Part shown: positions 1 to 61,830 of the stretch, one piece after another
How positions within the stretch are numbered: the stretch's first letter is position 1
Layout of the letters: each line of letters begins with the position of its first letter
IMG/VR virus record: IMGVR_UViG_3300033072_000728
Location: 8,554-72,553 of that record
Length of the DNA: 64,000 nucleotides
Source of the DNA: a virus
Taxonomy: Duplodnaviria; Caudoviricetes
Direction: 5' to 3' (one strand)
Program-made: the position numbers and the translations under genes
Notes under the pieces: model-generated
Told to the model about the DNA's origin: nothing
The model's input: only the letters and a program-made list of their open reading frames with translations
Databases searched by the model: none

Positions 1-2
1 GG

Positions 3-500
3 TTATTGGGATTGTAAACATGGCGTTAGGTATAAAATTTGGTATGAAGTTTCCAATGTCGGTGTATATGGTTCTATTTTGACTGACGGCAATAATGTTT
101 TAGTGTTTGTATCAAACTCAGTTTGCATTTTGTGTGAGGAATAAACTCTGATCCATCGATTTGAAAACTGAGTTTTGAACGTAACTTCTGGAACGAGTGA
201 GTTCATGACATTTCTGGTATGAACATTATCGTTTGGCCAACAATTAACAAAGATAGTGGAAACAAACTCGTCTGTTTCTGGATCAATAACCAACATGGGA
301 TGTTTGAGTGATTGGCTGGGCAATGGAAAGGTATCTTTGATATATTGTATTGTTTCTTGGGTTAAATGTGATGACAATAAACCAATGGGGCATGCCCCAC
401 GTTTATACGGGATTTGTTTTTGTTTTAAGAAATCTTCAAAATCAATAATTGTTTGCGGGTTATTTGAACCGCCGTGAAAAATAGTATCAATAGTATTCAT
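3..500 (-). CDS. hypothetical protein, 3' end runs off window edge
   Basis: ORF 3..575; likely start MNTID at 500, just below the stop of the next gene (508). Confidence 0.6.
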   Translation of the reverse strand: MNTIDTIFHGGSNNPQTIIDFEDFLKQKQIPYKRGACPIGLLSSHLTQETIQYIKDTFPLPSQSLKHPMLVIDPETDEFVSTIFVNCWPNDNVHTRNVMNSLVPEVTFKTQFSNRWIRVYSSHKMQTEFDTNTKTLLPSVKIEPYTPTLETSYQILYLTPCLQSQ

Positions 501-507
501 AATAAAA

Positions 508-933
508 TTAGGGTTGGTGAATCCATGAAACTGATAGGTCTGGGAATTTGCATTTTGCGACAAACAATAATGCATCTAAATCAGGAGTTGCAACACAGTG
601 TGTGTTATTTGCCATATTATAATGATATTCAAACCCTTGGACAAACTGCTGTAATTCATCTGATTTTTTGTAGGTGATGCCCCACCCGTTGTTAGTTTCA
701 ATAATGCCAACCCGACATGACGGCATTATTTGAACCTCACTATTATCAAGATAGGCATTCATGGTTGATATTAACAACGGCAACAATTCCGATTTTGGTG
801 TCCAATATATCACATTTGATTCTGATAGTTGTTGTAATGGTGAAAATGCACAAGCAATATCGTTGCTGAAATATAACAACAGCTCTCGTAATTGTTCGTA
901 TTGATCTAGTGAGTTAAATGTAAGTTTAATCAT
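508..933 (-). CDS. array-1 protein (C-terminal LFVAKCKFPDL)
   Basis: Likely start MIKLTF at 933 overlaps the upstream stop by 8 nt (ATGATTAA). Confidence 0.75.
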   Translation of the reverse strand: MIKLTFNSLDQYEQLRELLLYFSNDIACAFSPLQQLSESNVIYWTPKSELLPLLISTMNAYLDNSEVQIMPSCRVGIIETNNGWGITYKKSDELQQFVQGFEYHYNMANNTHCVATPDLDALLFVAKCKFPDLSVSWIHQP

Positions 934-1366
934 AATGATGGAATTCAATCATTTCCAAATCTGGGTTTTGACATTTTAACCAAAAAGATACATCAGGTGG
1001 AAGCAATAAGGCAGCATGTAAGTCAGAAACCCACCTTAAAATGTAAACAGTCGAACCAATCATTCCTTCAAACAATTTGATGATTTGGTTAATATCAGTG
1101 TGTTTGATGGTAGTATAGGTTCCAACATACGGAACAAATTCGACATGCTCAAAAACAGCAGGATCAATGGTGCTGATATATTCATCAAAATTTGATTGTG
1201 ATTCACAAACCAATCTTGCTGGGCATTTATAGTTTGGAATGGTTCTAACAACACTGCTATAGAAGTTTATTCCATTCAAACTATATTCTAATAATTTACC
1301 TTCGCATAATTCTTCACCATAATAAGTTTTTGGTTTGACAATGAATAGTTTCTTTGGGTTAGTCAT
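926..1366 (-). CDS. array-1 protein (C-terminal FWLKCQNPDL)
   Basis: 146 aa ORF; 8-nt ATGACTAA overlap with upstream gene. Confidence 0.75.
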   Translation of the reverse strand: MTNPKKLFIVKPKTYYGEELCEGKLLEYSLNGINFYSSVVRTIPNYKCPARLVCESQSNFDEYISTIDPAVFEHVEFVPYVGTYTTIKHTDINQIIKLFEGMIGSTVYILRWVSDLHAALLLPPDVSFWLKCQNPDLEMIEFHHYD

Positions 1367-1562
1367 ACTCTATTGTGATAGGTGGGAATTTGCATTGAAG
1401 CAAGAATAGGTTGACATCATTGGTAAAATTGACAGTAAAACAAACCCAGTTTCTGGCTAACCATGTAACATCAAATTGTGGAATGGTATTCTCGGTTAAC
1501 GATGTTTCAAAATCGTTTGGGTGAATTTCATTGGTGGGAACATGACAATAAACTAAAGTCAT
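1359..1562 (-). CDS. array-1 protein (C-terminal FLLQCKFP)
   Basis: 67 aa ORF with family motif. Confidence 0.75.
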   Translation of the reverse strand: MTLVYCHVPTNEIHPNDFETSLTENTIPQFDVTWLARNWVCFTVNFTNDVNLFLLQCKFPPITIEYD

Positions 1563-1565
1563 AAT

Positions 1566-1880
1566 TCAATAAACCCTTGTAATATCTGGATATTTGCATT
1601 GAAGAAGAAACCATTCTGTTTCATGTTCAATCCAAAAAAGTTTCAGATCAGAGTCTTCTAATAATCCCACAAAATTTATACCATACGTGGAGGGATCAAT
1701 CACCCAAAAATTTAGTTTCATATCATCGAATAACCAAACTAAAACATCTTGATCTTTTTTACTGGTACAAACTATTCCTATTGATTTTTGAAATTTTACT
1801 AATACTCCGTTTCCTTTCCAATAATTTTGGTAATATAAAAGTTGGGAGCATGTGTTAATATCATCTGATACAATGATCAT
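1566..1880 (-). CDS. array-1 protein (EWFLLQCKYPDITRVY)
   Basis: ORF 1566..1934; likely start MIIVS at 1880. Confidence 0.8.
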   Translation of the reverse strand: MIIVSDDINTCSQLLYYQNYWKGNGVLVKFQKSIGIVCTSKKDQDVLVWLFDDMKLNFWVIDPSTYGINFVGLLEDSDLKLFWIEHETEWFLLQCKYPDITRVY

Positions 1881-1885
1881 AGTGA

Positions 1886-2257
1886 TTAATATACCCTTAT
1901 AATATCTGGATATTTGCATTGAAGAAGAAACCATTGTGATTCATCGTCGGTTGATATAATTGCATCATTCTCGCTTGTTATCATGTGTACTGTCACTTCA
2001 GGCGTAAAAACCGAATCATATCCATATATAACTGCGATGAATTTTGATTCTATAGATGTGAGTTTTATTGTGTCATGAGCAGCAACATTCGCCCTTCCGT
2101 CGCATTTCATATCATCTTTCAATTCCCGCTCGGTCGAATAAAGGAATTCATGGTAGGTATCACCATCTAATGTTTTCCGCCAATATCTAAAGTTTGATCT
2201 AAATTTCATTTGGTAAGAAGGGGAATTTTCCCATCCAGTATACTCAAACACAAGCAT
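1886..2257 (-). CDS. array-1 protein (QWFLLQCKYPDIIRVY)
   Basis: 123 aa ORF. Confidence 0.8.
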   Translation of the reverse strand: MLVFEYTGWENSPSYQMKFRSNFRYWRKTLDGDTYHEFLYSTERELKDDMKCDGRANVAAHDTIKLTSIESKFIAVIYGYDSVFTPEVTVHMITSENDAIISTDDESQWFLLQCKYPDIIRVY

Positions 2258-2261
2258 ACCC

Positions 2262-2690
2262 TCAGTAAACCCTCACAATATCTGGATATTTGCATTGGAG
2301 TAGGAACCATTCGGTTTCGTCGCATTCATTAATGAAGTTTTGCCCATCATTCCATTTAACCATTGAATTTACTTGATCATCTGGGATGTCGTCCAGTAAT
2401 GCATAACACTTCTCTAATGGATCAATGTATTCCATTTCCCATTTAATTCCATACGCCACATAATCACTTGTAAATTTTATAAATCCATCTTGGCATTTCT
2501 TATATTCATTCGGGGAATAATTCCCAAATATGGCAACCCCATCATTGCGTTTGACGAAACATTTAAAGATAGGTTTGTGAATTTTTGAACGATCTACTAG
2601 AAATGGCGAAAATAAAAGGTAATTTCCGATAAGATCATTAAAATAAAAATCATCATACGTTATTGATGGATCATAATGAAGTAGTAACAT
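2262..2690 (-). CDS. array-1 protein (EWFLLQCKYPDIVRVY)
   Basis: 142 aa ORF. Confidence 0.8.
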   Translation of the reverse strand: MLLLHYDPSITYDDFYFNDLIGNYLLFSPFLVDRSKIHKPIFKCFVKRNDGVAIFGNYSPNEYKKCQDGFIKFTSDYVAYGIKWEMEYIDPLEKCYALLDDIPDDQVNSMVKWNDGQNFINECDETEWFLLQCKYPDIVRVY

Positions 2691-2693
2691 AGT

Positions 2694-3086
2694 TTAATAA
2701 ATCCTTACAATATCTGGATACTTGCATTGGAGTAGGAACCATTCTTCTTTGGAATCGGCGTGGACAATCTGAAATCCTTCATCCAGTAAAAATGCTGTGT
2801 TATGTGATGGTTCTGGGATCTTTACTAAACCAACAAGTTTAAACAAATTCAAGTCAGTTTGAATAGCATCACTTTTTGAGTATGGCGTTAATGATATGTA
2901 CAAATCAGTGACATAATCCTTGATAATTTGGCTAGCGTTGGTTGAATAAACAACAACGTTCAGTGAGTCTCGTATTGATGCCCAGTTAAGACTTTTATGG
3001 TTCATACTGCCCCAAACACACCGCAACGTGGAACTCGGTGCATCACACCCGTACCAATCATATTCAGTTAAGTTAACGAGAATCAT
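2694..3086 (-). CDS. array-1 protein (EWFLLQCKYPDIVRIY)
   Basis: 130 aa ORF. Confidence 0.8.
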   Translation of the reverse strand: MILVNLTEYDWYGCDAPSSTLRCVWGSMNHKSLNWASIRDSLNVVVYSTNASQIIKDYVTDLYISLTPYSKSDAIQTDLNLFKLVGLVKIPEPSHNTAFLLDEGFQIVHADSKEEWFLLQCKYPDIVRIY

Positions 3087-3090
3087 GTTT

Positions 3091-3456
3091 CTAATATACC
3101 CTTACAATATCTGGATATTTGCATTGAAGTAGAAACCATTCTGAATCTGATTCTGCAAATACTAATTCAGGTTTTCCAGTTTTACGAATTAAGCCCTTCC
3201 ATTCGGTTCCAACATCAGCAATGCTGAACTGGGGAGGGCAATAATCGTTACATTTAATCAAATAATCGATCAATGATTGTTGTTTTTGGTCTTTTATTTC
3301 AGATGATGTGAATGCGATTAAATTTCCATAGTAAGTTGAATAGAATGGAATAATCACGTTTTCTGGCATATCATGAATATCGGAAAACCATCTACATCGC
3401 GTAGTAATCCAGTTGTAGTTGTATGGTATCAAATCTGAAGGGTACACGGAAATCAT
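3091..3456 (-). CDS. array-1 protein (EWFLLQCKYPDIVRVY)
   Basis: Likely start MISVY at 3456 (ATGA overlap with exonuclease stop). Confidence 0.8.
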   Translation of the reverse strand: MISVYPSDLIPYNYNWITTRCRWFSDIHDMPENVIIPFYSTYYGNLIAFTSSEIKDQKQQSLIDYLIKCNDYCPPQFSIADVGTEWKGLIRKTGKPELVFAESDSEWFLLQCKYPDIVRVY

Positions 3457-4034
3457 GATACCCACTTAATAACCACATCTTTCAACGTGGGATTGTGCCA
3501 GTTTTCAATCACTTTGAAAGCACGTTGGACGGTTCTTGCTTGGTTAATAGCATCTTCCACTGCAACATGAGAAGTTTGATGATTATTATCAGTTAGTGAT
3601 ACTCCACACATTTCAAAAAGTGTTCGAGTGTCACGAACTTCCCAATACTTCCAAGGAATTGAAATGCCAACTTGATCTAAGACGTTTTCAAGAATACCAA
3701 TGTCAAACAGCGATCCATGTGCCCATGTTCGTTGGGGTGCATACTTATTAAAGAACGCTACAAGCGATCGAAGTGCTTCGGGTAAGGGAACCCTGCCTTC
3801 ATTGGTAAAAGCGCGCTCATAGGCCGTTTTAGACTGCTTGAGCCACCATTCTAGGGTAGATGTGCTCTCCGTCCTAATCCACTTGAATGATTGATCGATT
3901 AAATCAGGGTTAACCGAGAATGTATCAATGATTGAATCATTATTTGGATTGAAAATACAAGCACCAATACTTAGAATTTTCGATGTTGGTTTGGTATCGA
4001 CTGTTTCTAAGTCGATCATGATATGATTAGTCAT
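3453..4034 (-). CDS. DnaQ/DEDDh 3'-5' exonuclease (Rv2179c/exoribonuclease-like)
   Basis: ExoI HIMIDLET, WAHGSLFDI, RDTRT, ExoIII HVAVEDAINQA. Confidence 0.9.
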   Translation of the reverse strand: MTNHIMIDLETVDTKPTSKILSIGACIFNPNNDSIIDTFSVNPDLIDQSFKWIRTESTSTLEWWLKQSKTAYERAFTNEGRVPLPEALRSLVAFFNKYAPQRTWAHGSLFDIGILENVLDQVGISIPWKYWEVRDTRTLFEMCGVSLTDNNHQTSHVAVEDAINQARTVQRAFKVIENWHNPTLKDVVIKWVS

Positions 4035-4546
4035 GTAATTATTTCAAATTCAGGAAATGAGCATTTCAATATAAACACTACTGCTGGAAATTGTTCATTA
4101 TCGAGGCTAGTTAAGGTTATGATGGAATACTGAAGGGATGAATAGGGCAGACTGTTGGTATTAGTGTTTAGCCACGTTGAAAGCTCTTCAGTGGGAAAAT
4201 CGTTGGCATTGATAATGGTTGCAAATGGTGTTTCTGGAGTTTTTCCAAAATAGCATTCTTGTTCTTCCATGTCTTTTGAAAAACTTTGAAGTTCGGATAA
4301 CAATAAACATTCTTTGGTATAAGAATGACTTTTGATGGTTAAACAAACGGGTTGGTTTACCCCGAACTCAAAATTGTCAGATATTTCCCATGAATCGCCC
4401 AACTTATAAATGTGTCGGATTCGTGTTCCTATCTTTCGCAACACTCCGATTTTATTATGTTTATGGAAGATTTGAATCATTGAGGTTTTTGCAACGCCAA
4501 GAATAACGGCGCCGTTATTCTTTTGGTAACCCAAGCGGCATATCAC
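4031..4546 (-). CDS. array-1 protein, divergent (FILKCSFP)
   Basis: 171 aa ORF; start uncertain. Confidence 0.7.
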   Translation of the reverse strand: MICRLGYQKNNGAVILGVAKTSMIQIFHKHNKIGVLRKIGTRIRHIYKLGDSWEISDNFEFGVNQPVCLTIKSHSYTKECLLLSELQSFSKDMEEQECYFGKTPETPFATIINANDFPTEELSTWLNTNTNSLPYSSLQYSIITLTSLDNEQFPAVVFILKCSFPEFEIIT

Positions 4547-4988
4547 AAAATTTCGATTCTAATGCTTGCTTCATTCGTTCTAACTGAAATGGGGCAAATA
4601 AATCAGTATTGTTTTTCAAGAATAACGGCATGGTTCCCCATAATGAATCATCCCCTATGTGAAAATCGAATGTTACTTTCGCGGCATACCTCAATGACGA
4701 CTCATGGCTTTCATAAACCATGAAATTTGAATCGGATGGAGTTCTAAGTACAGAAAAACCATCGAGCAAAATATAGGAACTTTCGTATTCTGGAAACCCA
4801 CGAATATATGAGTCAATTATATCAAGATGTTTGGTTTCAAATATCTGGTATCGTTTATGGAACTCAATTGAGCTGCCATCAAAAATAGGGTATATCTGAT
4901 ACCCGTCAAGAATCATTTGCCAAGAATAGCCACGAAATCCCAGATCGCATAATACATATGGAACGGAAGTGTCAAGAAGTTTAGTCAT
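4515..4988 (-). CDS. hypothetical protein
   Basis: 157 aa ORF, ATGACTAA overlap; lacks the family motif. Confidence 0.7.
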   Translation of the reverse strand: MTKLLDTSVPYVLCDLGFRGYSWQMILDGYQIYPIFDGSSIEFHKRYQIFETKHLDIIDSYIRGFPEYESSYILLDGFSVLRTPSDSNFMVYESHESSLRYAAKVTFDFHIGDDSLWGTMPLFLKNNTDLFAPFQLERMKQALESKFCDMPLGLPKE

Positions 4989-5469
4989 ATGTAATTTCTA
5001 AATTTGGGTATTTGCATTTAATCAAAAATGCCTCGGATTGCCAATTTGTTTCTGAAAATGGGTTAAACTGGATAAAATTACCAACGATGTTAAATTTTAA
5101 ATCATATTCCTCACATAATGCAATTGTTTGATCTCTTTCAGGCGATGGTGAATAAACAAAATTAGTTGAAAAGAAAGGCATTGGGTTATTGATGACAAAA
5201 TCTTTTCGTTCTTCTAACGGGAATTGGTTTAACCACTTGCAAAGTTCGAGTTCTTTAAAATAAGAAGGATGTGCAATACATAAAACACGTTTACTTGAAG
5301 TTATATCAAGTGATCTTACTTCACCATTTCCGATGTATTCAAGTGAAAAACGATAATTCCACCCGTCGGGTTCAGGGTATTGTTTCTTTAACGCCCCTGA
5401 TAAATTTGACAAAATAATAACATCTTTTTGTTGACGTGAGGTAGAGTGTTCTAGAGATATTTGAATCAT
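4981..5469 (-). CDS. array-1 protein (FLIKCKYP)
   Basis: 162 aa ORF. Confidence 0.75.
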   Translation of the reverse strand: MIQISLEHSTSRQQKDVIILSNLSGALKKQYPEPDGWNYRFSLEYIGNGEVRSLDITSSKRVLCIAHPSYFKELELCKWLNQFPLEERKDFVINNPMPFFSTNFVYSPSPERDQTIALCEEYDLKFNIVGNFIQFNPFSETNWQSEAFLIKCKYPNLEITYD

Positions 5470-5726
5470 TGTTTGATTTCCTTAAATGTCACTGTTGGGA
5501 ACTTACATTTCAAAAGAAAAAACTCAGATTCAGAAAGTGCGGATAGGTTGATTTCTGCATGATAACATCCTTCAAACAATTCGGGAAACATCCAAATCGT
5601 ACCGTATTGTCTCAGATCATCGATTAAGTGTCCTTCGGCAATGAAGATTTCAATTTTATGAGAAGTATGAATGGCTGGGTGTTCTTCAACTGCCCGCATC
5701 AATTCACTGAAATTATAAGAATTCAT
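5466..5726 (-). CDS. array-1 protein (FLLKCKFP)
   Basis: 86 aa ORF, ATGA overlaps. Confidence 0.75.
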   Translation of the reverse strand: MNSYNFSELMRAVEEHPAIHTSHKIEIFIAEGHLIDDLRQYGTIWMFPELFEGCYHAEINLSALSESEFFLLKCKFPTVTFKEIKQ

Positions 5727-6112
5727 GGTTGAAAAAGGTTAGTTACTTTGAACAACGGGTTTGCACATTTAAACAAAAACTCGTCAGTATCGTTTCTAAA
5801 TTTTACAAAGAATACCATTTCGGTGTTTCGCATATAATGAGTATCGAATAGCTTCCATTTTTCAATAACAGCTTCAATATACTGACAACCAGCATTCCCA
5901 TCAACTGAAACTTCATGGGTATAATCTAATACAGCAGTTATATTGCCGTTTGTAACATGATGTCTGAACCATTTATTAGATGCGGTTACAACAGTTACAT
6001 AAGCACGATTGAATCGATTGCCATCAAACTGTATTGTTGTGGCGTATCCCGATTTAATCCGATCACGCCAAATAAATCCAACATCGTTTACTTGAATTAG
6101 TTTAGTTTGCAT
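5723..6112 (-). CDS. array-1 protein (FLFKCANP; ASNKWF subfamily)
   Basis: Likely start MQTKLI at 6112. Confidence 0.75.
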   Translation of the reverse strand: MQTKLIQVNDVGFIWRDRIKSGYATTIQFDGNRFNRAYVTVVTASNKWFRHHVTNGNITAVLDYTHEVSVDGNAGCQYIEAVIEKWKLFDTHYMRNTEMVFFVKFRNDTDEFLFKCANPLFKVTNLFQP

Positions 6113-6479
6113 TATGCGGAAGTTTATAAAGTTCAATTGTTGGATATTGGCAACGAAACAAAAATTCTTCTGGGTTAGGTGGTAAATTGATTAGCATATG
6201 AATCTCTGCTTCCATGCCTACCCAATAACATTCGATCAAAACCGCATTCCATTTTTCCCGAAGAGAGTTGATCAATGTCTCATTTGAGAACATTAACGTA
6301 TGGGTATATTGTTCTTCTTGATATAGGTGTTTGAATCGTTGGAACCAATGATTGGTGGCCTTGACTACGGCATAAACCCGCCAATCTTTTCCCGAACCTG
6401 ATTCACTGTCCCAAAGACGTTTTACGCCATGTCTAAACAAACAATGGGGTTTGTGGACTGAAATTAGTTTAGTTGGCAT
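6102..6479 (-). CDS. array-1 protein (FLFRCQYP; ATNHWF subfamily)
   Basis: 125 aa ORF. Confidence 0.75.
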   Translation of the reverse strand: MPTKLISVHKPHCLFRHGVKRLWDSESGSGKDWRVYAVVKATNHWFQRFKHLYQEEQYTHTLMFSNETLINSLREKWNAVLIECYWVGMEAEIHMLINLPPNPEEFLFRCQYPTIELYKLPHNAN

Positions 6480-6509
6480 TTTATGTGGTCAGTAATGAAA
6501 CAATAATGG

Positions 6510-6863
6510 TCAGCTCACGTTCTGGGGATAGGGAGTATGGTTCCATTTTGGGAATTTACAGTTAATAAGGAATTCTTGCTCAGGGGTATACCAAACCACA
6601 AACATTGGCCGTGAAAACCATCGTGGCGTTACCATGCTACGAATGAATCGGATATTGTTATCAATCAGAAATTGCTGGAATGCTTTCTTTTCTTCTGGAT
6701 CAATCCCAGAGGGTGAAGTCCAATATCCAGTAGGAATATCAGTAAACCCATCTGGATAATCTTTCCCTAAAACAAACCAATTACCATCTTGAAGTTTACA
6801 ACCTCCAATTGAGTTGGTAGCGAGTGCTTCTTCATGTGAACAAAATTTGTAAGTATATGTCAT
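6510..6863 (-). CDS. array-1 protein (FLINCKFP)
   Basis: 117 aa ORF. Confidence 0.75.
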   Translation of the reverse strand: MTYTYKFCSHEEALATNSIGGCKLQDGNWFVLGKDYPDGFTDIPTGYWTSPSGIDPEEKKAFQQFLIDNNIRFIRSMVTPRWFSRPMFVVWYTPEQEFLINCKFPKWNHTPYPQNVS

Positions 6864-6869
6864 GATAGA

Positions 6870-7052
6870 TTATTTCCAGGTATCTCGGATATGTTGAAGG
6901 TATTCTGGGTATTCAAGTGAGTTTGATAACAAGTCATCGGTGGATGGTTGTTGTGGTGGTTTGTAAGGTTTACATTTCCCAGAAAGAAAAAGTTTGCTTA
7001 AAAACTCTGATTCATCAGTGGTTAATTCTGATAGGGGGATTTCGACAATCAT
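6870..7052 (-). CDS. hypothetical protein
   Basis: 60 aa ORF in the gene run. Confidence 0.6.
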   Translation of the reverse strand: MIVEIPLSELTTDESEFLSKLFLSGKCKPYKPPQQPSTDDLLSNSLEYPEYLQHIRDTWK

Positions 7053-7064
7053 GATGGTTTAGTG

Positions 7065-7439
7065 TTAGATGGGCTCAATAGTCAGTTGTGGGTATAATTT
7101 GGTGAATAATGTTACCCGCTCATAATTTGCCAACGTGATGAGTGCTTTATTGACATTTGAACCAAACTCAGACTTGATTCGTTGTAAATTCCATTTACGT
7201 ACTAACCCATCAGGAATGCCATTATCCGACCCAACGATGTGTGAAAACTTTCTCCCAAGCATCAATTTAGACTTAACTCTGCTATTAACCCAACGGTTTG
7301 ACGCATCAATTTTTGCAATTGCCAGATTTGAATTAGTGGGTTCGTTGAAAACTAACCATTTTCCCAAAACCTTTATTTTTTCGGTATGTTCAAACATGAA
7401 AAGAAAACTTGGTGTAGTAATGATAAAAGTAACTGGCAT
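7065..7439 (-). CDS. array-1-like protein (ASNRW subfamily, LFTKLYP end)
   Basis: Likely start MPVTF at 7439. Confidence 0.7.
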   Translation of the reverse strand: MPVTFIITTPSFLFMFEHTEKIKVLGKWLVFNEPTNSNLAIAKIDASNRWVNSRVKSKLMLGRKFSHIVGSDNGIPDGLVRKWNLQRIKSEFGSNVNKALITLANYERVTLFTKLYPQLTIEPI

Positions 7440-7441
7440 TT

Positions 7442-7696
7442 TTAGTCTTTGATAATGTGGTTTAATGCTTCCACAATCGCCGCAGATTTTTGGTTGGCCC
7501 ATTCTGCTTGCTCAAATGGCACCTGCGACGAAACGCGATGGTAATATTCTGAAAAATCACTGACCAATGCCATCAATGATTGCTTCATTTTGGTATTTTC
7601 AGCTCTAAGTGCTTCTAGCTCATCTTGAGCATCTTGCGCCCAAGATTTCAGTACGTCAATATGCATTGTTGGTCGATAATTTTCAACTTGGTTCAT
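7442..7696 (-). CDS. hypothetical coiled-coil protein
   Basis: 84 aa ORF with heptad-like LEALRAENTKMKQSL. Confidence 0.7.
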   Translation of the reverse strand: MNQVENYRPTMHIDVLKSWAQDAQDELEALRAENTKMKQSLMALVSDFSEYYHRVSSQVPFEQAEWANQKSAAIVEALNHIIKD

Positions 7697-7702
7697 TTTG
7701 AC

Positions 7703-8032
7703 TTATCCACGGGAGGGTAAAATCATTACAAAACTCACAAACACCAGAAATACGAAGAATAGAAATGATATTCCCCACGCCTCATTGCTTCTGAATTTCT
7801 TTGGTTTCCCATCGTAGTCTTCGACAGTTGCGAAAAACATGTCAATTGGGCGGCGACAGGGATTAACTTCGACGAATCGAAACTTTTGAACAGTGCCATC
7901 CGTTAGATGCATTTCAAGAAAGTCCCCAGGTTCTGGTGTAATAGATTTAAACCCGTAAACAGTTCTATTTTCATAATTGTTGAAAACAATACTGTTACCC
8001 CAAGTTCCACCTACTTTGTAAACTCGTGGCAT
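7703..8032 (-). CDS. hypothetical protein with C-terminal transmembrane helix
   Basis: 109 aa; hydrophobic tail ISFLFFVFLVFVSFVMIL. Confidence 0.7.
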   Translation of the reverse strand: MPRVYKVGGTWGNSIVFNNYENRTVYGFKSITPEPGDFLEMHLTDGTVQKFRFVEVNPCRRPIDMFFATVEDYDGKPKKFRSNEAWGISFLFFVFLVFVSFVMILPSRG

Positions 8033-8049
8033 ATTTTTCCTTTCATAGT

Positions 8050-8532
8050 TTAAAGATCATCAGACGGTAGAAAATCCCATTCAATTTCGCCCATCTTGAC
8101 TTTTGAATGGTCGATAGTCACTGAGTAAACAATCTCATCAATGACTTCGAGTGCTTTCTTGAAGTACAGCTCTGGATCATCAATGTGAATGGTTTCGCTC
8201 CACCCTTCAAACTCTTCAAAGTGAAAATCGTAAAACGTATCACCCCACTTAGTTTTGGCATTCTCAATTCGCAAATTACGAATAAATGCCTTTGGTGGTG
8301 TAGGTACAAGTTCACCATTTATGATGGCGCATTTCTTATAAACCTTCTTGACAAACTCGCCATCAAGTTGCCAATAACCGTTTACAAATTTTGCGATACT
8401 AGCAGATGCCCAAAAATGCACCACGCCCTTTGATTCTTCATTCAATCCAGGGCTATCATAATCTTGACCGTCAGGTAAGCATTCACGAATGGCAATACAC
8501 CCAGATCGTTTGTCAACAAAGTATTTTGTCAT
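8050..8532 (-). CDS. hypothetical protein
   Basis: 160 aa ORF with upstream AAGGAG. Confidence 0.75.
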   Translation of the reverse strand: MTKYFVDKRSGCIAIRECLPDGQDYDSPGLNEESKGVVHFWASASIAKFVNGYWQLDGEFVKKVYKKCAIINGELVPTPPKAFIRNLRIENAKTKWGDTFYDFHFEEFEGWSETIHIDDPELYFKKALEVIDEIVYSVTIDHSKVKMGEIEWDFLPSDDL

Positions 8533-8598
8533 GTCAATTCTCCTTGTTCAATGCATTCATTCTAGATCAATTTTTCAAAAGTTGAAAGCACAAATGCA

Positions 8599-8627
8599 AA
8601 AAGCCTGAGTGATCAGCTCAGGCTTTT
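8599..8627. terminator. intrinsic terminator (bidirectional-looking)
   Basis: AAAAGCCTGAG / CTCAGGCTTTT inverted repeat. Confidence 0.85.
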
Positions 8628-8638
8628 GTTCGTTTAGG

Positions 8639-8959
8639 TCACTCGATCATCACCGCAGATGCAACATCAAATGATGAAATTCCACCCCATTCTGAGTTAG
8701 TGAATTCTACACTTTTCCCGTTCTTGAAGGTGATGACAATATCTTTCCCGCTATTGTCGATTTCATCGCGTACCGCATCGAACGATTGTTCTTAAAGTCG
8801 AACAATTTCATGTTCTAAATTTGAACCAGTAACACCCGTATGTGTAATTCTTGAAACATAAGCAGTTTCGACAATATCCTCTCCAAAAATGCGAGAAGCC
8901 ATGGTGGTGAGGTTTTTGTCATATTTCAGCAAATAATAGTCAGATACTGGTGTTACCAT
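8639..8959 (-). pseudogene. 107-codon gene with one in-frame TAA (8792-8794)
   Basis: Hand translation MVTPVS...HEIVRL*EQSFDAVRDE...FKNGKSVEFTNSEWG...; fills a gap in the ORF track. Confidence 0.75.
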
Positions 8960-8962
8960 GTT

Positions 8963-42065: not shown

Positions 42066-45000
42066 TTATTTGTTAGTTAGAAACATTGCTGGATAAGTTT
42101 CTAACAGTTGTAATGGATCAGACATTTTGAATCCGTAGTTGTCTACATTATCAAGAATCGCCGTATTCCAAGTAACTGAATTGTATGATGGATCAAGTTT
42201 ATTAGAATCAAGAATTCCGTAGATAAGTGATCTTGCTGCAATCGCTTCACGAATTGGAGTGCAATTTGTTCCACGGGTTAGTCCAGAAATTGTATTGGTT
42301 GTAAAATTGATATTAGAGAATCTAATCATTTCACCATTAACCAACACATAATTTCCTTCATAGGCATATACCACCAAACTATCACCAGAAGAAACTTCAC
42401 TTGATGCAATCATAATAGTTGGCATCAATTGAATAAGTTTCAATGATAGTGCATCATCTGAAATCCATTTTCCAGTTGACCTATTGAATACCTGAACACC
42501 GACAATTTGAGTTCGATTCACTTCAGGTAACTCGATATTTCCAGAATATGTTTTTTCAAACACAGAAGGCTTGACTAATCGAGTAACATCAAATACCTGA
42601 ATCTCATTTGCATCAATATCTACGTCAGAATAAACCCATGTTTGTGTTGACGATGGAACACGATATGTTACTTCGTTTGCCATCGCATCAACCACCGTTC
42701 GGAATTTAACTGAATCTGGGCATTCTCTGGCACTTGCTTTAGTGATAATGACATGATCACCAGTAACAATCTCGGTCAAAATACCAATACGGTTTCCAGA
42801 ATAGACTTTGATGTTGGGTTCAAACAAACGATAACCATTCAGAGTTACCCACAATCTTGACGGATTGATTACAGTTTCGTTCTCAAATGAGAACAAATTA
42901 TTCAACCACATAAAACCACCCGATGCACCTGTTACTATTCCGTTAGAATCCACTGAAACATGACCAACATCAGAATTCGTTAGAATAGTGATAGTGTCAA
43001 GTGATGAATCGCCCAAACTGGTTGTAATTGAACTGATTTTGTATTCATTGCCGTTTAATCCGATACCATTGCTTCCAAAACCATCAATTAAAACAATGTC
43101 ATTGACCGAGAATGTATGAGCAGTCTTTTCAACTTCAAGCGATACCCCTGAATCAGTGGCAATCACTCTTAAAATTGGAACAACTCTTGCACTCATGGTT
43201 TCTAAAGTTGTTAGTTGTTGGTTTTTGATGTTATCGAAAGTAGTTAGAGTAACCATGTCCCCATTTGAACATCCTGAACTCAATACTAAACTTCCACTTG
43301 AAATAGTGTACTCAGTTGAATAAAGTCTTAGTCCATTCTTACAAACAATCGCATTATCTGCATGGTCAGAAGAAATAGAATAACCAAACTCAAAAGTAGT
43401 TTGTCCAGAAGTTGCCACAAATTCATGGGGCTCTGCAAGACTGTATAATCTCAGGTAAACCTTGTACTGTGTTCCAAATGCGTTCACCGTTAGCGAAGTG
43501 CGATTAGTGAGTGTGAAATCCGAGGTTTCAACACCATCCACTTTAACTACCAGCGAATCATATGATGCATGTTGTGCAACTGAATTTGGAAGTGTAATGA
43601 TATTAGAACTAGAAGTTACTATTTCAGGAACTCCAAAATCCTTCAACTTGATTCTGACGTTTTGATTTTCCACCACTGAAGTATCGGTAATAGTTACAAC
43701 GCCATTTAACACTGTCCATTCAGTTGTTTCCACCCATTGCTCAGTGTCTAGGTTTTGTAAGAATACTTGACCCCACGTAGACGTGAAAAACTGCTTCAAG
43801 CCGTGCGTCAATGTGAATGATTGTGGTGCCACGTTAGTTGTCACAAATTCTGCAACATCTGCCGAAGGCTTGCCCATAATGGCAAATGCAACATAGTCAA
43901 CATTCGGATCACCTGCTACTGAAAACACTAACTTACAGTAACCGTCATCAGTGAATACCAATTCATAATCAGTTCCTTGAACTTGTTCAACCCCATTTCT
44001 GAAAACAGGATGAATACAATCAATAACTCTTGATGCCTGAATGGGCACGCGAATTTCGTTTCCAATAGAAACTGGTAACATCAATGTGTTTGCTTTGAAT
44101 ATCTGATTTCCACCACCTGATTCAAATACTTCAACAATTGGGATGGTTGTCATGCCATCAAACACCCCAGTAGTAAACGTGATAGTTTGGTTTCTCCAAT
44201 CAATCGTGTATTTTGAAGTGTCTAATAAAGTTGCAAAATTAGTTTCAGTATTTTCTGAATAAACTTGCAACAACATCGGACATGTTACTTGATTTGCAAA
44301 AGAAACCTTGTTCTCAAAGATACTAGGTCTAAAACTTACTTTCTTAAACCCATTTGCTTTATAAACAGAATGATAACCACCAAAATCACCACTAGGTGTT
44401 GAATCAACTGTGATTGAAATAGATTCTTTGACAATACCCGAAACCATTTCTTCAGGGCTATAACCTGCCTCAAATGATTCACCAACCAACGAATATGCTG
44501 ATTTGTTATTGATAATCTTAGTTTCATTATTCCAAGTAACGCCATCAGCACTGATTAGAATGGTTTTATCATCGCCAATTGCAACCCATGTAGTAATTGA
44601 ATCAAAGTATTTCACTTTTGTTAGGTTTGACGTGGTTAACGAAGTAATTTGTGTCCAAGTATTCAAATCACTTGAAACAAACATTGTTCCTTCTGAACCA
44701 ACAACCACACAACTTGTTCCACTTGAAGCAATACTAACCAAATCAGTATTAGGAATGATTTGAACCTTCTCCCAAATTTGAGGATGGGTTGAAGTCCAAA
44801 TATATCCATTAGAACTACAAGCGACTATTTTGTTAGCAAATACTGTGAAGTCAAAAATGGTTTCTTGTCCGAGCAATGATGAATCAAGTTGTTGCCAGAT
44901 TGTCAAGTTCGATTCTGGATCAATTGTTCCAACAATGACAACAGCTTGGTCACTAGGGAATGAAGTTTCATCTGCTTGTGATAGCAGTTTTGCTGTACCT

Positions 45001-48000
45001 GTTACCAAGTATCCCTCAAATCCACCCACAATCGAAATCCATTCAATGGTTTTCAATGAAGGTTCAATCCAGTTTGCGTCAAGTTCAAATGCAACTTGCC
45101 AAGCATCATTTTCATATTCACTGATATTAGAACCAATTACAAAGCGTTTCCCATTGTGTTCAAACACTTGAGTGATATTAGAACAAGTTGAATTTTCAGG
45201 CCTGTCCCATGATCCTTCAGTGGTAGGCATAACTGAAGAAAGTAATTCGGAATCAGCAGTAATTGATGATACCAACCATCCTTCAGTAGATTTACAAATA
45301 CTGGTTACACCAATATCAACTGAATCTGAAAGATCAATTGTTTTTGTCCAAGATACTTGTGGGATGGTTGAAACTAATAGCTGAGACTGTGAACCGTTAT
45401 TTGCAATCACAAAAAGTCGATTAGAAGAACTGTCATACTCACAATCTACCAAGTTTGTCTCAATCTGATCAAACTTGAAACTTTGGACTTTAATATCTAA
45501 ACCAAGATCACTTGCAAATGGATTGCCAAGATAGGTTGGTTTTGAATAACTAACACCCTTCATTAACTGTGACAAATCGTTTCCTGCCATTCCTGGTGTT
45601 GGTGCATAGTACGCAAAGATTCGATCAGTTGCATTTAGTCCAGCACTTCCACCAGTAATAGCTTCCCAATTATCGTAGTCGAAAATTGCATCATTGTTAC
45701 TTGTCAAACACTTATACAACTTACCTTCATATGTGACTAAACTCTGAGAATAATTGGTAAACTCTCCGACATATCCTAGTACATCTGAACTGACCAATGA
45801 ATACTCGAAATCAGAAACTACCCCCGCATTTGAAGGATATTTGAATAACTCAATTTCAGTGTCAGAGATAACACTAACATAGTACGAAGAAACTTTGTTA
45901 TTACAAAAACCAGTTGCGGTAAATGCTCCGATTCTACCCCCAGAAAAAGTGTATTCTACTTTAATTTGAATATCATTCTCTGGTGAAATGCCACCAACAT
46001 CAGTGCCTAGAATAGTTAGGATTTGCCCAGCACGATAACCAGAACCTGCTTGTTCAACACCACTTGAATCAAACGCGAGTTCAACCGCATATTGTTGTTT
46101 CACTTGGTTAGATTCAAAAACAGGGGTGTAAACATTGAATTCTGCGCCTGAACCAAAGGCTGTAACTTGATGAGTAACATTCTCAAAAGATTCAGGTAAT
46201 TGATAGAAATAGATTTTCTCGTTATCAATTTCAGCGGGGTTTAATCCACCATTATATTCCACTGTCAGTTTAGTGGTTTGGGTTGAAGTTGTTGGTTGTG
46301 TTACCCCTGTTACAGAAATATGCCCCGCAGTAGTTGAGTTCTTTGCAAACCCACTCACACGAAGACTTACTTTTCCTGAACCATTGATACTCATTCCTGA
46401 TACTGCACCAGTGCCTGAAACAACGCTTGAAATAACCAAAGTTGCATCGTTGTCAGGTGCCAAACCACCCAAATCAGTGCCCAAAATAGTAAACGTATCA
46501 CCTTCACTATATCCATTGCCACCTGACCATGCAGAATCTAACAAATATGTGTTAGCTGGTGGAACATTTCTATCATACCGAGTAACATTTACCACAGCCC
46601 CTGAACCTGTACCAATAATGTTTGTTGGTACAATCGCAGAATAATCAACTGTTTCTGAAGTTCCAATCTTTGCTGGAATACCCGTATAAGAATATGCTAG
46701 TATTGAACCTGAACTTGTTTCAGAATCAATGACCGTTATATCATCAATTGAAATAACAACATCATTGATAACATTAGCCCCACCCAAAACTGAACCAGAA
46801 ACTAATAACCGATCACCAATTTTATAACCAGTTCCTGAATTTGAAACTGTTACCACATAGTTTTCAGTATTGACTCCACCATATTCGGTCGCATATACTT
46901 TAATTTGTAATCCAGAACCAGATGTTGGGGCATTTGGGTACAATGTGGGTTGGTCAAAAATAACTGAAGAAAATAAAGAACTTGATGAGCTTGCCATTGT
47001 TCCTAGTTTCTTCAACGTATTTTCTAATGAGCCAGCATAATATGCACCCGATTCCCATTTACTAACTTTTGATGTGAAACTGGTTCTATCAAACCGTAAC
47101 GTGGTTGCAAGTTTACGAACATTGTCAGCCTTACCTGAACAAATTGCAAAAGCACCTTGACTTAGAGTAAACCCGTTTGTCCCTGAAACGGAAATGAAAT
47201 CAATTCGATGAATATCATTTTTGGCATCTTGTTCCCAAACATAAAGTGCAACGTCTTGGGTGTAAGTGGAATCATTCAAAGAGGATGAAACCACACCCAA
47301 CCAATAATGCTGTCCAGAAACTAGACCATTTATTGAAGATAACCCGTTTGTAGTATATTTGATTAAATCACCTGTTTCAAACGGGGTTGCAGTAAACACT
47401 CGAATGGTTTTTGCTGAAAGATTTACATAACCAGAAGTAAATGAAACACTGAATGCTGGATCGATATTGACAACAGGCAATGAACGAATTCCAACACCTT
47501 GTCCAGAAACTGTGATACCAACGACTCCACCATTTGCCAAATATGCTTTGCAATAATATGGCTTAGATGGTTGAATTGTTTGCGAAGGATATGACAGTTT
47601 AACCTTTGGGGTTGAAGTATATCCTCTGCCTGAATTCATGACCATGATTGCTGGCATTGAGAAAAGAATTTCAGAATTTGCAGCATGGGATGTTATGTTT
47701 GTATCATTTGCACCACGGCTTAATCCATAAACAATACCATTAACACGATCAACAGATGTGTAAGTTATTTGTTCAGAATCAATTAGAAGTGTTCCAGATA
47801 CAGGTAATCCATTTGCGTTATCAACGTATAACTCAGTATCTTTGGTTCCGATGTATTTGACCAAGAATGAGATTGATTGCCAGCCTAGATTCTTCAATTT
47901 CAAATCATAATTTTCACTCCAATTTGTGTATTCAAAATTGCCCCACATAGAATCGGTATACATTTTTTGAGTATACGGATCACTAATATCAGACTCACTG

Positions 48001-51000
48001 AAAACAATCTGGGGTGAAATATAACTTTGTGTTTCGTCATTAAACTGAGCTGGAATATCAAAATCAGTGGTGGTAGATTGATAAACCACATTTCCAGAAT
48101 ACTTGAACTCAAAGTCTTTGATAACACAGTGGTATGGTTTAACTTCGTTGATATAACCTTCTAAGAAAGTTTGGTTATCTTTCTGATACTTTGGAAGTTT
48201 TTCCAAAGAACCAGCAGAATATACCACATCGATTAAACTTGTCTTGAATAACCAAGGAATGTAGTTTCCTAGTTCTTTGGCTTCACTGTTTGCATAATTG
48301 AATATAACTTGAAGTAGATTATTTCTTTCAAATTCAAGATCATCTGTCAGAATTTCTTCAATAAGACTTCGGACAATATATCGAGTTTCTTCCCCAGGGA
48401 ATGAGTCAAATGCATCACCAAACACATCAGAGCCATACCCAGATTTTGAATATAGTGATTCATTGATTTTGAATGTTCCGTTTGTTAGACCAATTCTCTC
48501 CCACGAATCATTTTCGTACAACCAATACTCGGATTGCCCTTCACTGTTTTGTAATACCTTGGCAATCATTCCATCAAACTTGTTTTTAACCTTTGCTAGA
48601 TTTTCAAACCGTTTAACTTGAACATTGGTTTTGGTAGTTTGTGAATAACCAGTTTGCCACCAATCAGTATATGTCCAATAATCTGTAGTATTGAATGAAA
48701 CTGAAGCATCGCCTGTATCATCATTGGTGATTGTTTCACCTTGTTTGAATAACAATGTTGGGTTTCTTGTTTCAACCAATGGATATTGTACCATTACGTT
48801 GTTTGCAAATTCAATGATGTTTGCAAGTGCTGCATTGCGATCAATGAACATGCTTTGACGTGGGCGGAAACTTACCCCATATTGTTGCTTGCGTGGCAAA
48901 TATGAGTCTGGGACTAGATTTCCAACGGAGTCAATACCACTGATACTGTCAATGAATTTCAGATATAACCCTGAAAGAGTTTCCGACACTTTAGCTGGAA
49001 TTCCATCAAAGAACTCTGACATAGAGTCATCATTTGAAGTCTTGATGATTTTGTATTCATCAAACTTCTGAGAATCAGTGTTTGACTTGAAATTAACTCT
49101 TATGGTTACTGAATCAGTATTGAATAATCCCGCCAAGTTATACACTGCAAAAGAATGTTCATTCAAGAAAGCAATGAATGGAATACCTGACTTAACAGGA
49201 TTAGAAATATACTCAGAAACAACAGAATCACTCAGGGAATGGTTAAAATCAATTGAGTTATTATTTTCAACCCAGAAGTAATAATACTGTGTAGAGTTGC
49301 CCACTTTGTTACCAATAACGTAATTGGATGCAGGTTTACCTTGTCCAACATATTGATCGGGTGGAGTTAAACTCTTAACCCAAGTTGAAACCTTTACGTT
49401 TGAATTGGGAACCGTGGTGCCCCATTGTTCACTTGCAAATTTCAAATCGGGCGAATAGTAATTGACATAACGGAGTTTCGACGTATCAACCCATATTTGA
49501 CCAACTTGGTTATCGCCCCAGATAATGCTTGAATTATCATAACCAGCGGGATCAAAGTCGCACATATAATCAATGTTAGACTTTACTTGACTTAATAACA
49601 GCCCTGCCACTGGATCAAAAACATCAAGTTCAGTAATAACTTCAGAGGTTTCTGGGTTTACTAATTCCACGCTACTGATATTTGAGTAATCAATTTGCTT
49701 GGTTTCTTGTTGAATTGTAGTCCAACCTGTCAAACCTTCTGACTTGAATTGACATAGTAAACCATTTCCGTTTGATGTAGAAACATTCTTAACACCGACT
49801 AGAATTTGATCTTTGGTTGCACTTGACGTATTCCCAAATTTTGAATCTGATTTAGTGATACTAGAATCGTACAGTGCTTGAGAAAACTGATACCAATCCG
49901 AATCTACTTTGTCATAAACAAATACTTGTCCAATGTTCTTTACTTGGTCAATGAATGTGGTTGCATTTTGATCAAATACACAGTCGTTGAATTCAAGATC
50001 ATCGACCCAATCAAATTCAACTGGTTTTAATGCGGTTGAATTGGGGGCAGATACCACAATAGAATTCCCAACATCAATGATATTAAAACCAAACCCTGTA
50101 TCAAGATCGTATGGGATAGGGTTCTTTAGAGTTTGATACAATTGATATTGGTCATACTCAAGATATTTGTCTTCCACATTGGCAGCAAACATTTTAACAC
50201 TTAGGGTTGAACCAGAACTTGAAATGGTTACTGTGCTTGAATCTTTGACCAAAGCTGTAATGTGTTGAATATATGCTTGGTTAATCAGTAAAGCTAGTTG
50301 CGCAGCAGACACGTTTGATGGCACCTGAACCACAACATTGTTGATTACAACATTGAAAGCGTCATTTCCAGAGACGATAACAACATCCAAAATTTTGTTT
50401 GTTCGTGCCACGTCAATGTAGCGTTGAACTTCACCTGAAGTAGTGGCGTCAATTGGCTTTCCAGGTGCTCCAATAAACAAATCAGTAGAAGCAGCACCTA
50501 AACAAACACTTTGACCAAAACGCTGGCCCACTGTGCTTTCATTCGTTGAAACAATGGTTTGCGCAAGACTAATCTTCCCACCAATCACTTCAATTTGATC
50601 ACCAACCACGGTATTTTCAACAACTAATTGATCAGAAGAAATAATTGAAAACTGTGATTTTTTCAGTTCAACGCCATTCAAATATACAAGTGGAATTGCA
50701 CTAGGAGTCCAACCAATACTAGCTTGGAATTTACCCGATGATTTCACATTGAATAGGCGACGGATATTAGAATAGACAAATACCTTACCAACATTTGAAT
50801 GGAATGAATCTTGATCCCATTTACTTGCGCCAACGATAATGTCTTCACCGTTGTTTGAAATATCCACTACTTCACCAAAACCTTGAATGGTATTGGAAAT
50901 TGTAGATTGAATAGTGTAGTCAGTCTCTGCAACATAGATTTCACCAAGGTTGACAAAATCTCGTTCTAATTGGTCAAGCAATCTAACAGTGGTAACTCCA

Positions 51001-61400: not shown

Positions 61401-61830
61401 TCCAAATGATGGTTTGACCATTTAGATTATACCCATTCAAATCAAACACGTCTTCGGTTGTGCGAATACTTGAAATTTTAAGAACACCTTGCGCACATTG
61501 GTTTCGTTTTGGAGTGTAATTAACCAATGACGCCAATTTGATTACACTGTCTCTCTTTTCTGCAAGTTCAATGAAGTTCTCGCGGGTGTTTAGATCATGA
61601 CGGAAAGCCAATGATTGGCCCATGAATGCAATGACATTAAGCAATGCCATGTATTCTGACCCTTGAGTGTAATCATTGAAATTTTCAGGGTAGTATGTTT
61701 TTAGATATTCAATAAAGCTCTTTTTAAGGGTTTCTGCATCATATGATGAGAAATCAGCTTGACTGAAAGTTTTATAGATTTTTTGCCAATCATTTGTACC
61801 AAATACATTGGCGTTAGGAGTGGTTGCCAT
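58450..61830 (-). CDS. baseplate wedge subunit (T4 gp6/baseplate-J-like)
   Basis: 1126 aa; SEYMALLNVIAF...RENFIELA; ESIDDIKQRAP...QNRMVNGEDY. Confidence 0.85.
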   Translation of the reverse strand: MATTPNANVFGTNDWQKIYKTFSQADFSSYDAETLKKSFIEYLKTYYPENFNDYTQGSEYMALLNVIAFMGQSLAFRHDLNTRENFIELAEKRDSVIKLASLVNYTPKRNQCAQGVLKISSIRTTEDVFDLNGYNLNGQTIIWNDPANQNWFEQFCSIVNASLVSSQKFGKPGNSKTILNIKTDEYAIQLPATTLPIKAFESKVQGVKQRFELVSVSSVNSDNLQEVNPKPSSTFNILYRNDKLGYASANTGFFVYFKQGQLFTKDFSITEQTQNQLIDINQNNINDSDVWLFQIDPIDSSSLQEWTKVDNVYSANQGSTTRTLFSVKSRANDQISLRFGDGVFSDLPSGKFRVAYRVSNGNSYQIAINEIQGVQVSFDYIDANDVQQKLTLQLSLQLPVSNALPAESIDDIKQRAPTQFYSQNRMVNGEDYNLLPFTQYNSILKTKAINRASIGVSRSKDLLDPTGKYSNHTLFATDGGIFKLDDTETLNVTFSDVTDLAKFFTEDLKKLLATPKTIQWYQANAARYDLSLTEGSDTDNKIYWKTGSVQSNYFTTGYLFDYIGSDENLIKNPLAVGNYSDNNLKYIGQNALIKIVAPEGYYFDVDTNRLQQGTITNTKNGKLYYWTTVTNVVEDGYNNGQGLLSTGEGPITLSDYVPSGAIVAQVIPSFDNTVGTSLIQNIISRMNLQRDFALKFNNSLALSLERWRVVATSSTDWFFKFTCQSSGSYLVEYRSLKYVFSSVNETRFTFNNDQIVYDRNTGQILNDYIKVLRTNLDPDIPTASLNQDIVLTCVGQTIETDGYTNDFQIEVSAINPKNKQFTTDPDFFSKLIGIPSKKWVFLKTSTDPQLLTRTQMIATAEVVSEFATLIQIERSKYDYPPNQIYYATKENKFYVAEQDTTVSTSLVVSETTDYSVRIGRQPLSFQYQHYANQNVRVNPTTSNIIDVYIVLKTYYQNYKNWLRDQTGKVAEPSQPSTYQLMTEFSKLNTYKTSSDELILNSVKFKPLFGTKASANLQAKIKVTKLKSSTASDSEIKSAVIAVIDEFFSIEKWDFGQTFYFSELSAYLHTKLSTMISSAIIVPIQNNKRFGELYEIRAMPFEIFMSAAQVTDIDIVDTLSPSDFKNT

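Follow-up and report, generated by a model that had tools for sequence, protein, structure and literature searches.

A frozen C-terminal tip shared by five tandem genes with otherwise dissimilar products in an uncultured jumbo phage

Five consecutive minus-strand genes, at positions 1566-3456 of the 64,000-nt stretch of phage DNA analyzed here (the window), encode small proteins that all end in [E/Q]WFLLQCKYPDI[T/I/V]R[V/I]Y. The window corresponds to bases 8554-72553 of a 72,553-nt virus contig in IMG/VR (IMGVR_UViG_3300033072_000728). The genes are called A to E here in the order of their coordinates; the last 16 codons with the stop codon are called the tip, and the remainder of each protein is called the body. 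The 16-residue tail appears to be frozen, while the rest of each protein has been free to diverge. On balance, we lean towards the explanation that the five genes are extremely diverged tandem paralogues, the tip of which is selected, probably binds a partner, and is kept uniform in part by short-tract gene conversion and by a second role in translation initiation.

The tips of genes A, B, C, D, and E are located at 1566-1616, 1886-1936, 2262-2312, 2694-2744, and 3091-3141, respectively, all on the minus strand. A repeat search gives one family of 57-nt copies with identities of 79-93%, and the start-to-start distances of 320, 376, 432, and 397 nt reproduce the spacing reported in an earlier note on this DNA. 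The near-identical 3′ tip on five genes, which that note had described, is confirmed by the ends of the open reading frames (ORFs), by the repeat search, and by binned identity. The mean pairwise DNA identities in the first four 15-nt bins counted from the stop codon are 0.75, 0.97, 0.88, and 0.67 (ungapped), whereas the identity in every later bin is 0.21-0.38, the random level for DNA with 37% G+C. The check for an identity step that the earlier note had proposed therefore gives a sharp drop, from 0.67-0.97 to 0.21-0.38. The identity step at the tip boundary is real and is accompanied by a weak shoulder. In the protein alignment of A to E, there are 13 invariant columns in the tip and almost nothing else.

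The codons in the tip should be noted. In the 11-codon core from W to I, four codons (F, L, L, and K) vary among the five copies, and all the changes are synonymous third-position changes, indicating that the tip is translated and that strong purifying selection acts on its peptide. Of the 120 pairwise codon comparisons at the 12 invariant residues that have synonymous codons, 94 match, versus 56.9 ± 6.9 expected from the codon usage of this contig, and none of 20,000 simulations reached 94. The conservation at third codon positions claimed earlier is borne out by these values. The rare AGG codon, which makes up 7% of the Arg codons, and TGC, with 31% of the Cys codons, are each used in five of the five tips. 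As estimated from the codon-match figures, saturation of the synonymous sites in the tips is below one half, while the bodies are saturated at every position; we take the tips to be younger than the bodies, or else to be constrained at the nucleotide level.

Relatives were sought by word-indexed searches of 5.8 billion proteins and by an exhaustive HMMER search of 1.84 billion cluster representatives, and were compared as proteins only. The tip is found in only seven clusters at 50% identity, from a handful of uncultured contigs (Logan, ENA, and JGI). Each of A to E has its own orthologues, with body identities of 78% for A, 64% for B, 83-87% for C, 60-78% for D, and 60-82% for E, and a more distant E-like group has the same tip on bodies of 35-42% identity. 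An additional body type, F (P0016), carries the same tip in a relative, and no full-length counterpart of it is present on this contig. All 24 full-length proteins of seven body types from this phage and its relatives retain the core WFLLQCKYPDI without change, the variation being limited to tip positions 13, 14, and 15 and to the E or Q before W. Since each pair of body and tip has orthologues in related phages, the combinations are best read as old, vertically inherited, and individually conserved, and not as recently assembled or hypervariable. The recent attachment of the tip supposed in the earlier note does not agree with such orthologues, the bodies of which are 60-87% identical (35-39% in the E-like group) and end in the same tip.

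Gene A (1566-1880, minus strand) encodes 104 aa, and both the gene-caller product P0009 and the orthologue P0011 have this length. Its start is probably at 1880, and a longer ORF from 1934, which overlaps gene B, is probably unused. Gene B (1886-2257, minus strand; 123 aa) has the orthologue P0012, with a full-length tblastn identity of 67%. Gene C (2262-2690, minus strand; 142 aa) has the orthologues P0006, P0022, and P0024, which share 83-87% body identity with it, and gene D (2694-3086, minus strand; 130 aa) has P0007 and P0010, with body identities of 78% and 60%, respectively. Gene E (3091-3456, minus strand; 121 aa) begins with an ATG within an ATGA overlap with the stop codon of an exonuclease gene. 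The ORF of gene E is open to 3465, and the start is probably at 3456, because the orthologues begin at MIS. The starts of genes A and E were set by the gene caller together with the orthologues.

Tip position 13 distinguishes this phage from its relatives. The products of C, D, and E have V there in this phage, whereas the C and D orthologues of the relatives, and all but one of the E orthologues, have I. The distant E-like group also has I at this position. The pattern requires either three parallel changes from I to V or one change that was copied.

The five genes are not isolated. About 12 more small genes on the same strand directly adjoin them, so that the array extends over contig bases 7284-16055 (window positions −1269 to 7502), and A to E are regarded as the most closely knit subfamily within a tandem family of about 17 small accessory proteins (67-162 aa) that is specific to this lineage. 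The tails of the other members are degenerate forms of the tip, such as LFLLQCKFP, AFLIKCKYP, FFLLKCKFP, EFLFRCQYP, EFLINCKFP, and VFILKCSFP, each followed by a short h-x-h-x-h stretch. In this wider family, F, C, and P are nearly invariant, while Q is replaced by K, R, or N, K by Q, S, or A, Y by F or N, and D by N, T, P, or E. The motif is encoded by differing codons while F, C, and P persist, suggesting that it is conserved in the wider family as protein and not as DNA. Judging from the hydrophobicity pattern, the module that defines the family consists of about 30 C-terminal residues predicted to form a strand, an acidic turn, a second strand with F-h-h-x-C-x-[Y/F]-P, and a short strand with h-x-h-x-h. 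Many members also have a short hydrophobic stretch at the N-terminus.

Two features outside the tip are shared by all or most of the products of A to E. The similarity in residue character runs for about 13 residues before the tip, to about residue −29. This shoulder consists of an acidic turn preceded by a hydrophobic strand, and its mean BLOSUM scores of 0 to 1.4 exceed the baseline of −0.9 ± 0.5. At the N-terminus, M followed by three aliphatic residues is found in A, B, C, and D and in body type F of the relative, whereas among about 96 other ORFs of the contig only 2 begin in this way. The shared N-terminus, the shoulder, and the approximately 12 flanking genes with a degenerate module make divergence of paralogues likelier than capture of foreign domains. 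The claim of the earlier note that a shared C-terminal element is attached to diverse domains can be kept for the element, which appears to be a selected peptide, but not for the attachment of foreign domains. Its description of the bodies as unrelated is correct in that no similarity is detected by hhalign or Smith-Waterman alignment, but is overstated in view of the common start, the shoulder, and the wider family.

The favored explanation can be divided into several steps. The middles of the proteins would have diverged beyond recognition from a common ancestor. In the subfamily of A to E, the tip probably forms a common docking or assembly surface in addition to any part in the fold core, since W, Q, K, D, and R, which are variable in the wider family, are frozen across seven body types and several phage lineages. 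Under gene conversion alone, the consensus tips of different phages should drift apart; as they have not, a shared interaction surface is inferred. The variable bodies would then differ in specificity while taking part in a single common interaction, for which host takeover or counter-defense is the most plausible setting. Short-tract gene conversion between the 48-51-nt tips of neighbors would keep the tips younger than the bodies, and a conversion tract that stops where the homology stops would produce the sharp identity step. The last third of the tip may also double as the translation-initiation region of the next gene, through AAGG(G/A), a gap of 3-5 nt, and unstructured mRNA.

The arrangement at the gene junctions is as follows. 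The next gene starts 3-5 nt after each tip stop codon, namely 3, 5, 4, 3, and 4 nt after tips A, B, C, D, and E, respectively. An AAGG(G/A) sequence lies at −17 to −13 from the next ATG; it was located at −17 to −15 before genes B, C, and D and was read from the sequence before gene A and the gene starting at 1562, where AAGGG of tip A is 16-17 nt before the ATG. AAGGA precedes about a dozen other genes of the phage in the same range (9-16 nt before ATG). RNA folds at the junctions have z-scores of +0.3 to +1.9 relative to shuffled sequences, that is, there is no stable structure, and any difference is towards less structure. Such an initiation role of the tip end would explain why the rare AGG codon is used in all five tips, though not the codon excess further upstream.

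Several observations weigh against the favored explanation. The bodies of A to E have no relation detectable at the sequence level: hhalign of the orthologue profiles with the tip removed gives no body match (all P ≥ 0.06), and the body scores in Smith-Waterman alignments of protein and DNA are no better than those of shuffled sequences. Structure prediction does not supply the missing link, since the mean predicted local distance difference test (pLDDT) scores of AlphaFold2 models are 48.6 for E (seven sequences) and 39.1 for A (two sequences), and the ESM Atlas models are of equally low quality. The basis of the docking role is the conservation pattern, and that of gene conversion is codon statistics and one co-varying residue. 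Even this residue is not entirely consistent, because P0021, an E orthologue from another phage, also has V at position 13, and tip position 16 (Q in B) tracks the orthologue lines and not the genome lines. The earlier note had proposed recent gene conversion; the excess likeness at synonymous sites fits conversion, but about 10% of nucleotides are still different among the five tips, and any conversion would accordingly be neither very recent nor full-length. As for the initiation role, most genes of the phage have no recognizable Shine-Dalgarno sequence, and AAGG is far from the ATG, with 11-13 nt after the G run.

A common origin of the bodies obscured by frameshifts was also considered and rejected. 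Among 90 frame combinations (all nine per comparison), the sole match has z = 4.2, which is not significant after correction for multiple testing.

In a different explanation, the 51-nt tip is a joint for in-frame cassette shuffling, by which independent bodies are captured or exchanged and whole genes are deleted, duplicated, or circularized with the ORFs kept intact. We regard this as unlikely, though it deserves consideration. The bodies show no similarity in any frame, and the tips are the sole homology and have about the length that T4-type phage recombination needs (<50 bp, PMC2839356). The seventh body type (P0016) occurs with the same tip in a relative, and the genes at contig 7693-8163 and window 926-1366 share only their last 9 codons, the stop codon, and 5 further nucleotides. 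However, the contig covers 21% of the genome, and body F may still be encoded elsewhere in this phage. Moreover, the content of the array is stable, every member found keeping its pairing of body and tip in the orthologues of relatives, and the N-terminal pattern and the shoulder before the tip suggest common descent. The motif of the wider family has diverged DNA, so that there is no recombination substrate there, and in-frame capture of foreign ORFs lacking stop codons is improbable in itself. A combined form, in which the tip is a portable docking tag on phage adaptors, by which the various bodies reach a single host or phage machine, and is homogenized by conversion while the same 51 nt act as the joint for in-frame swapping of whole genes (a coding counterpart of promoter early stem-loop (PeSL) or integron cassettes), is similarly doubtful.

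The five genes could also be ordinary fast-evolving paralogues, with neither conversion nor a partner; the tip would be a buried pair of core strands, and the codon excess would arise from the initiation region and local codon preference. Conservation of the F..C.[Y/F]P face in the wider family is as expected for a fold core, the orthologues are under ordinary purifying selection, and the Shine-Dalgarno-like AAGG in the tip, the tight coupling of the genes, and the unstructured mRNA agree with an initiation region. Nevertheless, we give this explanation only a slim chance: residues that vary freely in the wider family do not change here in any of seven body types from several phages, the codon excess persists when AGG is omitted (84 of 110 matches versus about 55 expected), part of it falls 22-50 nt before the next start, beyond the reach of a normal ribosome-binding site, and position 13 co-varies by genome. 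An element acting at the nucleotide level, such as an operator, a promoter, or an attC-, repetitive extragenic palindromic (REP)-, or PeSL-like sequence with the peptide as a by-product, is close to refuted and very improbable. All five tips contain a palindrome, and their codon identity is above expectation. Contrarily, the variation in the core is all synonymous, the frame and the distance to the stop codon are equal in all copies, and the protein motif is encoded by other codons in about 12 genes, in which the palindrome is absent. There is also no sigma-70-like promoter match and no stable hairpin in the tips, and no integrase or reverse transcriptase on the contig.

The palindrome is a 14-nt sequence, AATATC-NN-GATATT, inside the codons for K-Y-P-D-I, and is present in five of the five tips, one copy having one mismatch. 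Elsewhere in the 64 kb there is one near-match, versus 0.43 expected, and the palindrome is absent from the rest of the family. Being confined to the tips, it was rejected as a genome-wide operator. An RNA hairpin or terminator in the tip was rejected as well, with no stable fold (z of +0.3 to +1.9) and no terminator match in any tip. None of the 32 promoter-like matches of the sigma-70 type in positions 1-8000 falls in a tip, and their total is no higher than in shuffled sequences. A cleavage site for a prohead protease before the tip was considered by eye. The motifs of such proteases are L/I-x-E in T4 and S/A/G-x-E in phiKZ, and the residues before W do not fit them.

Among known systems, the array is closest in setting to the PeSL cassettes. 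In T4-type phages, the hyperplastic regions and PeSL cassettes have short repeats of about 50-100 bp at the borders of ORFans (Arbiol, Comeau & Krisch 2010, PMC2839356; PMC4122927). PeSLs are intergenic and consist of a sigma-70-like promoter and a terminator stem-loop; loss, gain, and circularization of whole genes have been attributed to them and demonstrated by inverse PCR (PMC2839356; PMC4122927). The array resembles them in its accessory-region context in a phage of the T4 superfamily and in repeat length. The tip differs in that it is coding (the last 16 codons and the stop codon, with 3-5 nt of intergenic sequence), appears to be selected as a peptide, and has no promoter match and no stable fold. 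Phages G and 121Q are reported to have head-to-tail arrays of more than 30 similar genes, which have been read as tandem duplications (Hua et al. 2017, PMC5646251). The present array is similar to these in being composed of lineage-specific small genes placed head to tail on the same strand of a jumbo phage, but it has about 17 members, alike only over the last 16-30 and the first approximately 4 residues.

The pattern of constant and variable parts has counterparts in other protein families. In the poxvirus ankyrin/PRANC (F-box-like) and SOCS-box families, the N-terminal parts are variable, and a short C-terminal element docks all members to one partner. The likeness lies in a multigene family with a constant C-terminal element and variable bodies and is an analogy in the way of working; there is no sequence relation (no Pfam match), and the tip here is only 16 residues long and predicted to be β-structure. 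Concerted evolution of tandem families by short-tract gene conversion leaves a homogenized segment with a sharp boundary to diverged sequence. The array is comparable in its sharp boundary, in synonymous sites that are too alike for the rest of the gene, and in a residue whose changes follow the genome. The differences are that the evidence consists of codon statistics and that one residue, and that the tips are about 10% different.

The earlier note had also described a repeat-spacer architecture, for which no features of clustered regularly interspaced short palindromic repeats (CRISPR), diversity-generating retroelements (DGRs), or integrons are found. A CRISPR array has non-coding repeats of 23-50 nt, non-coding spacers of 26-72 nt, and cas genes nearby. 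This reading was rejected since the "spacers" here are 270-380 nt long and consist of the bodies of protein genes that are conserved and have orthologues; no search for cas genes was made. In a DGR, a template repeat and a variable repeat align with each other and differ mainly at adenines. Neither reverse transcriptase (PF00078) nor tyrosine integrase (PF00589) is found in the 72.5-kb contig, which represents about 21% of the genome; this agrees with the statement in the earlier note that both are lacking. A DGR was rejected since there is no PF00078 match, the variable parts do not align at the DNA level, and the conserved part is the 3′ tip. Integron cassettes depend on the tyrosine integrase IntI and on non-coding attC sites that fold as imperfect hairpins. 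They were rejected since there is no PF00589 match and the repeat is coding and does not fold.

The family is uncatalogued. Searches of Pfam, PHROGs, NCBIfam, and PDB sequences give no match past the cut-off for A to E, the other members, or the C-terminal profile, and ESM Atlas gives no usable match for the family. No related DNA was found when IMG/VR was scanned with the tip DNA, protein E, and the neighboring exonuclease, or in two metagenome scans and one prokaryote-genome scan. The result is best described as a well-documented new family with an unusual conservation profile in a small phage clade, and not as a new kind of system. Jumbo phages give large shares of their genomes to arrays of tiny genes without annotated function, and the present array is a clean example in which a tail is frozen. 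If the tail is a docking surface, the array would be a natural panel of adaptors with one handle and would offer a route to a host or phage hub targeted by this phage clade. If the tail is also a recombination joint, the array would show how whole genes can be exchanged without breaking reading frames.

The other members of the array are all encoded on the minus strand, like A to E, and the array genes overlap by up to 11 nt or are separated by gaps of at most 34 nt. Downstream of gene A are the 67-aa member at 1359-1562, with the tail LFLLQCKFP, and the members at 926-1366 and 508-933, with the degenerate tails CQNPDL and CKFPDL, respectively. Upstream are seven members with degenerate tails, at 4031-4480, 4981-5469, 5466-5726, 5723-6112, 6102-6479, 6510-6863, and 7065-7397. 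The ORF at 4515-4988 and a small ORF at 6870-7052, both on the minus strand within the array, lack the motif. Two candidate members are located upstream of the window, at contig 7284-7577, which carries FLLQCKYPD, and at contig 7693-8163, which is without the CKYP motif and has only its tail in common with 926-1366. The Rv2179c-like 3′-5′ exonuclease gene at 3453-4034 (minus strand; PF16473, E-value of 2.3e-39) lies inside the array and is not a family member. It is linked to both its neighbors through ATGA stop/start overlaps.

For the other family members in the window, the same related contigs contain orthologues with identities of 69-92%. In these contigs, the bodies of B (64-67%) and E (65-82%) are less conserved than the other family members (84-88%), and the tip-frozen subfamily may have the fastest-evolving bodies. 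Body similarity within the array is detectable only among 5723-6112, 6102-6479, and 7065-7397. The Smith-Waterman z-score between the bodies of 5723-6112 and 6102-6479 is 6.4, and those between 7065-7397 and each of the two are 3.0-3.8. The three bodies have a common motif around [A/T]-[S/T]-N-x-W-[F/V].

A second shared 3′ tail is present at 926-960 and at contig 7693-7730, 860 nt upstream of the window, both on the minus strand. The 156-aa gene at contig 7693-8163 and the gene at 926-1366 both end in E-x-x-EFHHYD, and their DNA is near-identical over the last 9 codons, the stop codon, and the 5 nt that follow. The EFHHYD tail includes ATGATTAAAC, the start word (M-I-K) of the next gene, which thereby overlaps the tail. 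Downstream of contig 7693, this word opens only a dead ORF of 6 codons. The start of the 157-aa ORF at 4515-4988 overlaps the TATGACTAA tail of the preceding gene, and this overlap of Y-D-stop with ATG recurs at 1359-1366.

The contig is estimated by CheckV to be 21% complete, which implies a genome size of about 345 kb, and essentially all its genes are carried on the minus strand. The 1,126-aa product of the gene at 58450-61830 is a gp6-like baseplate wedge protein that matches phrog_10646 and is about 32-36% identical to its counterparts in Salicola phage SCTP-2, Agrobacterium phage Atu_ph07, and Klebsiella phage RaK2. The similarity of this protein and the completeness estimate indicate that the contig is part of the genome of an uncultured jumbo myovirus in the T4 superfamily. 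Searches against the INPHARED phages give zero nucleotide matches and only chance-level tblastn matches (E ≥ 3), that is, there is no close relative among the deposited phage genomes. The T4 late-promoter octamer TATAAATA has no occurrence on either strand of the 64 kb, versus 4.1 ± 2.2 expected.

A strong 12-bp hairpin between A and T runs is present at 8599-8627 and is terminator-like on either strand. It lies within 8533-8962, the sole sizeable gap upstream of the operon that bears the array. A TAGAAT sequence, unflagged by the promoter scan, was seen by eye after the hairpin on the minus strand. Further along the window, one ORF of 5,444 aa occupies 42066-58400 on the minus strand, followed in coordinate order by the gp6-like wedge gene.

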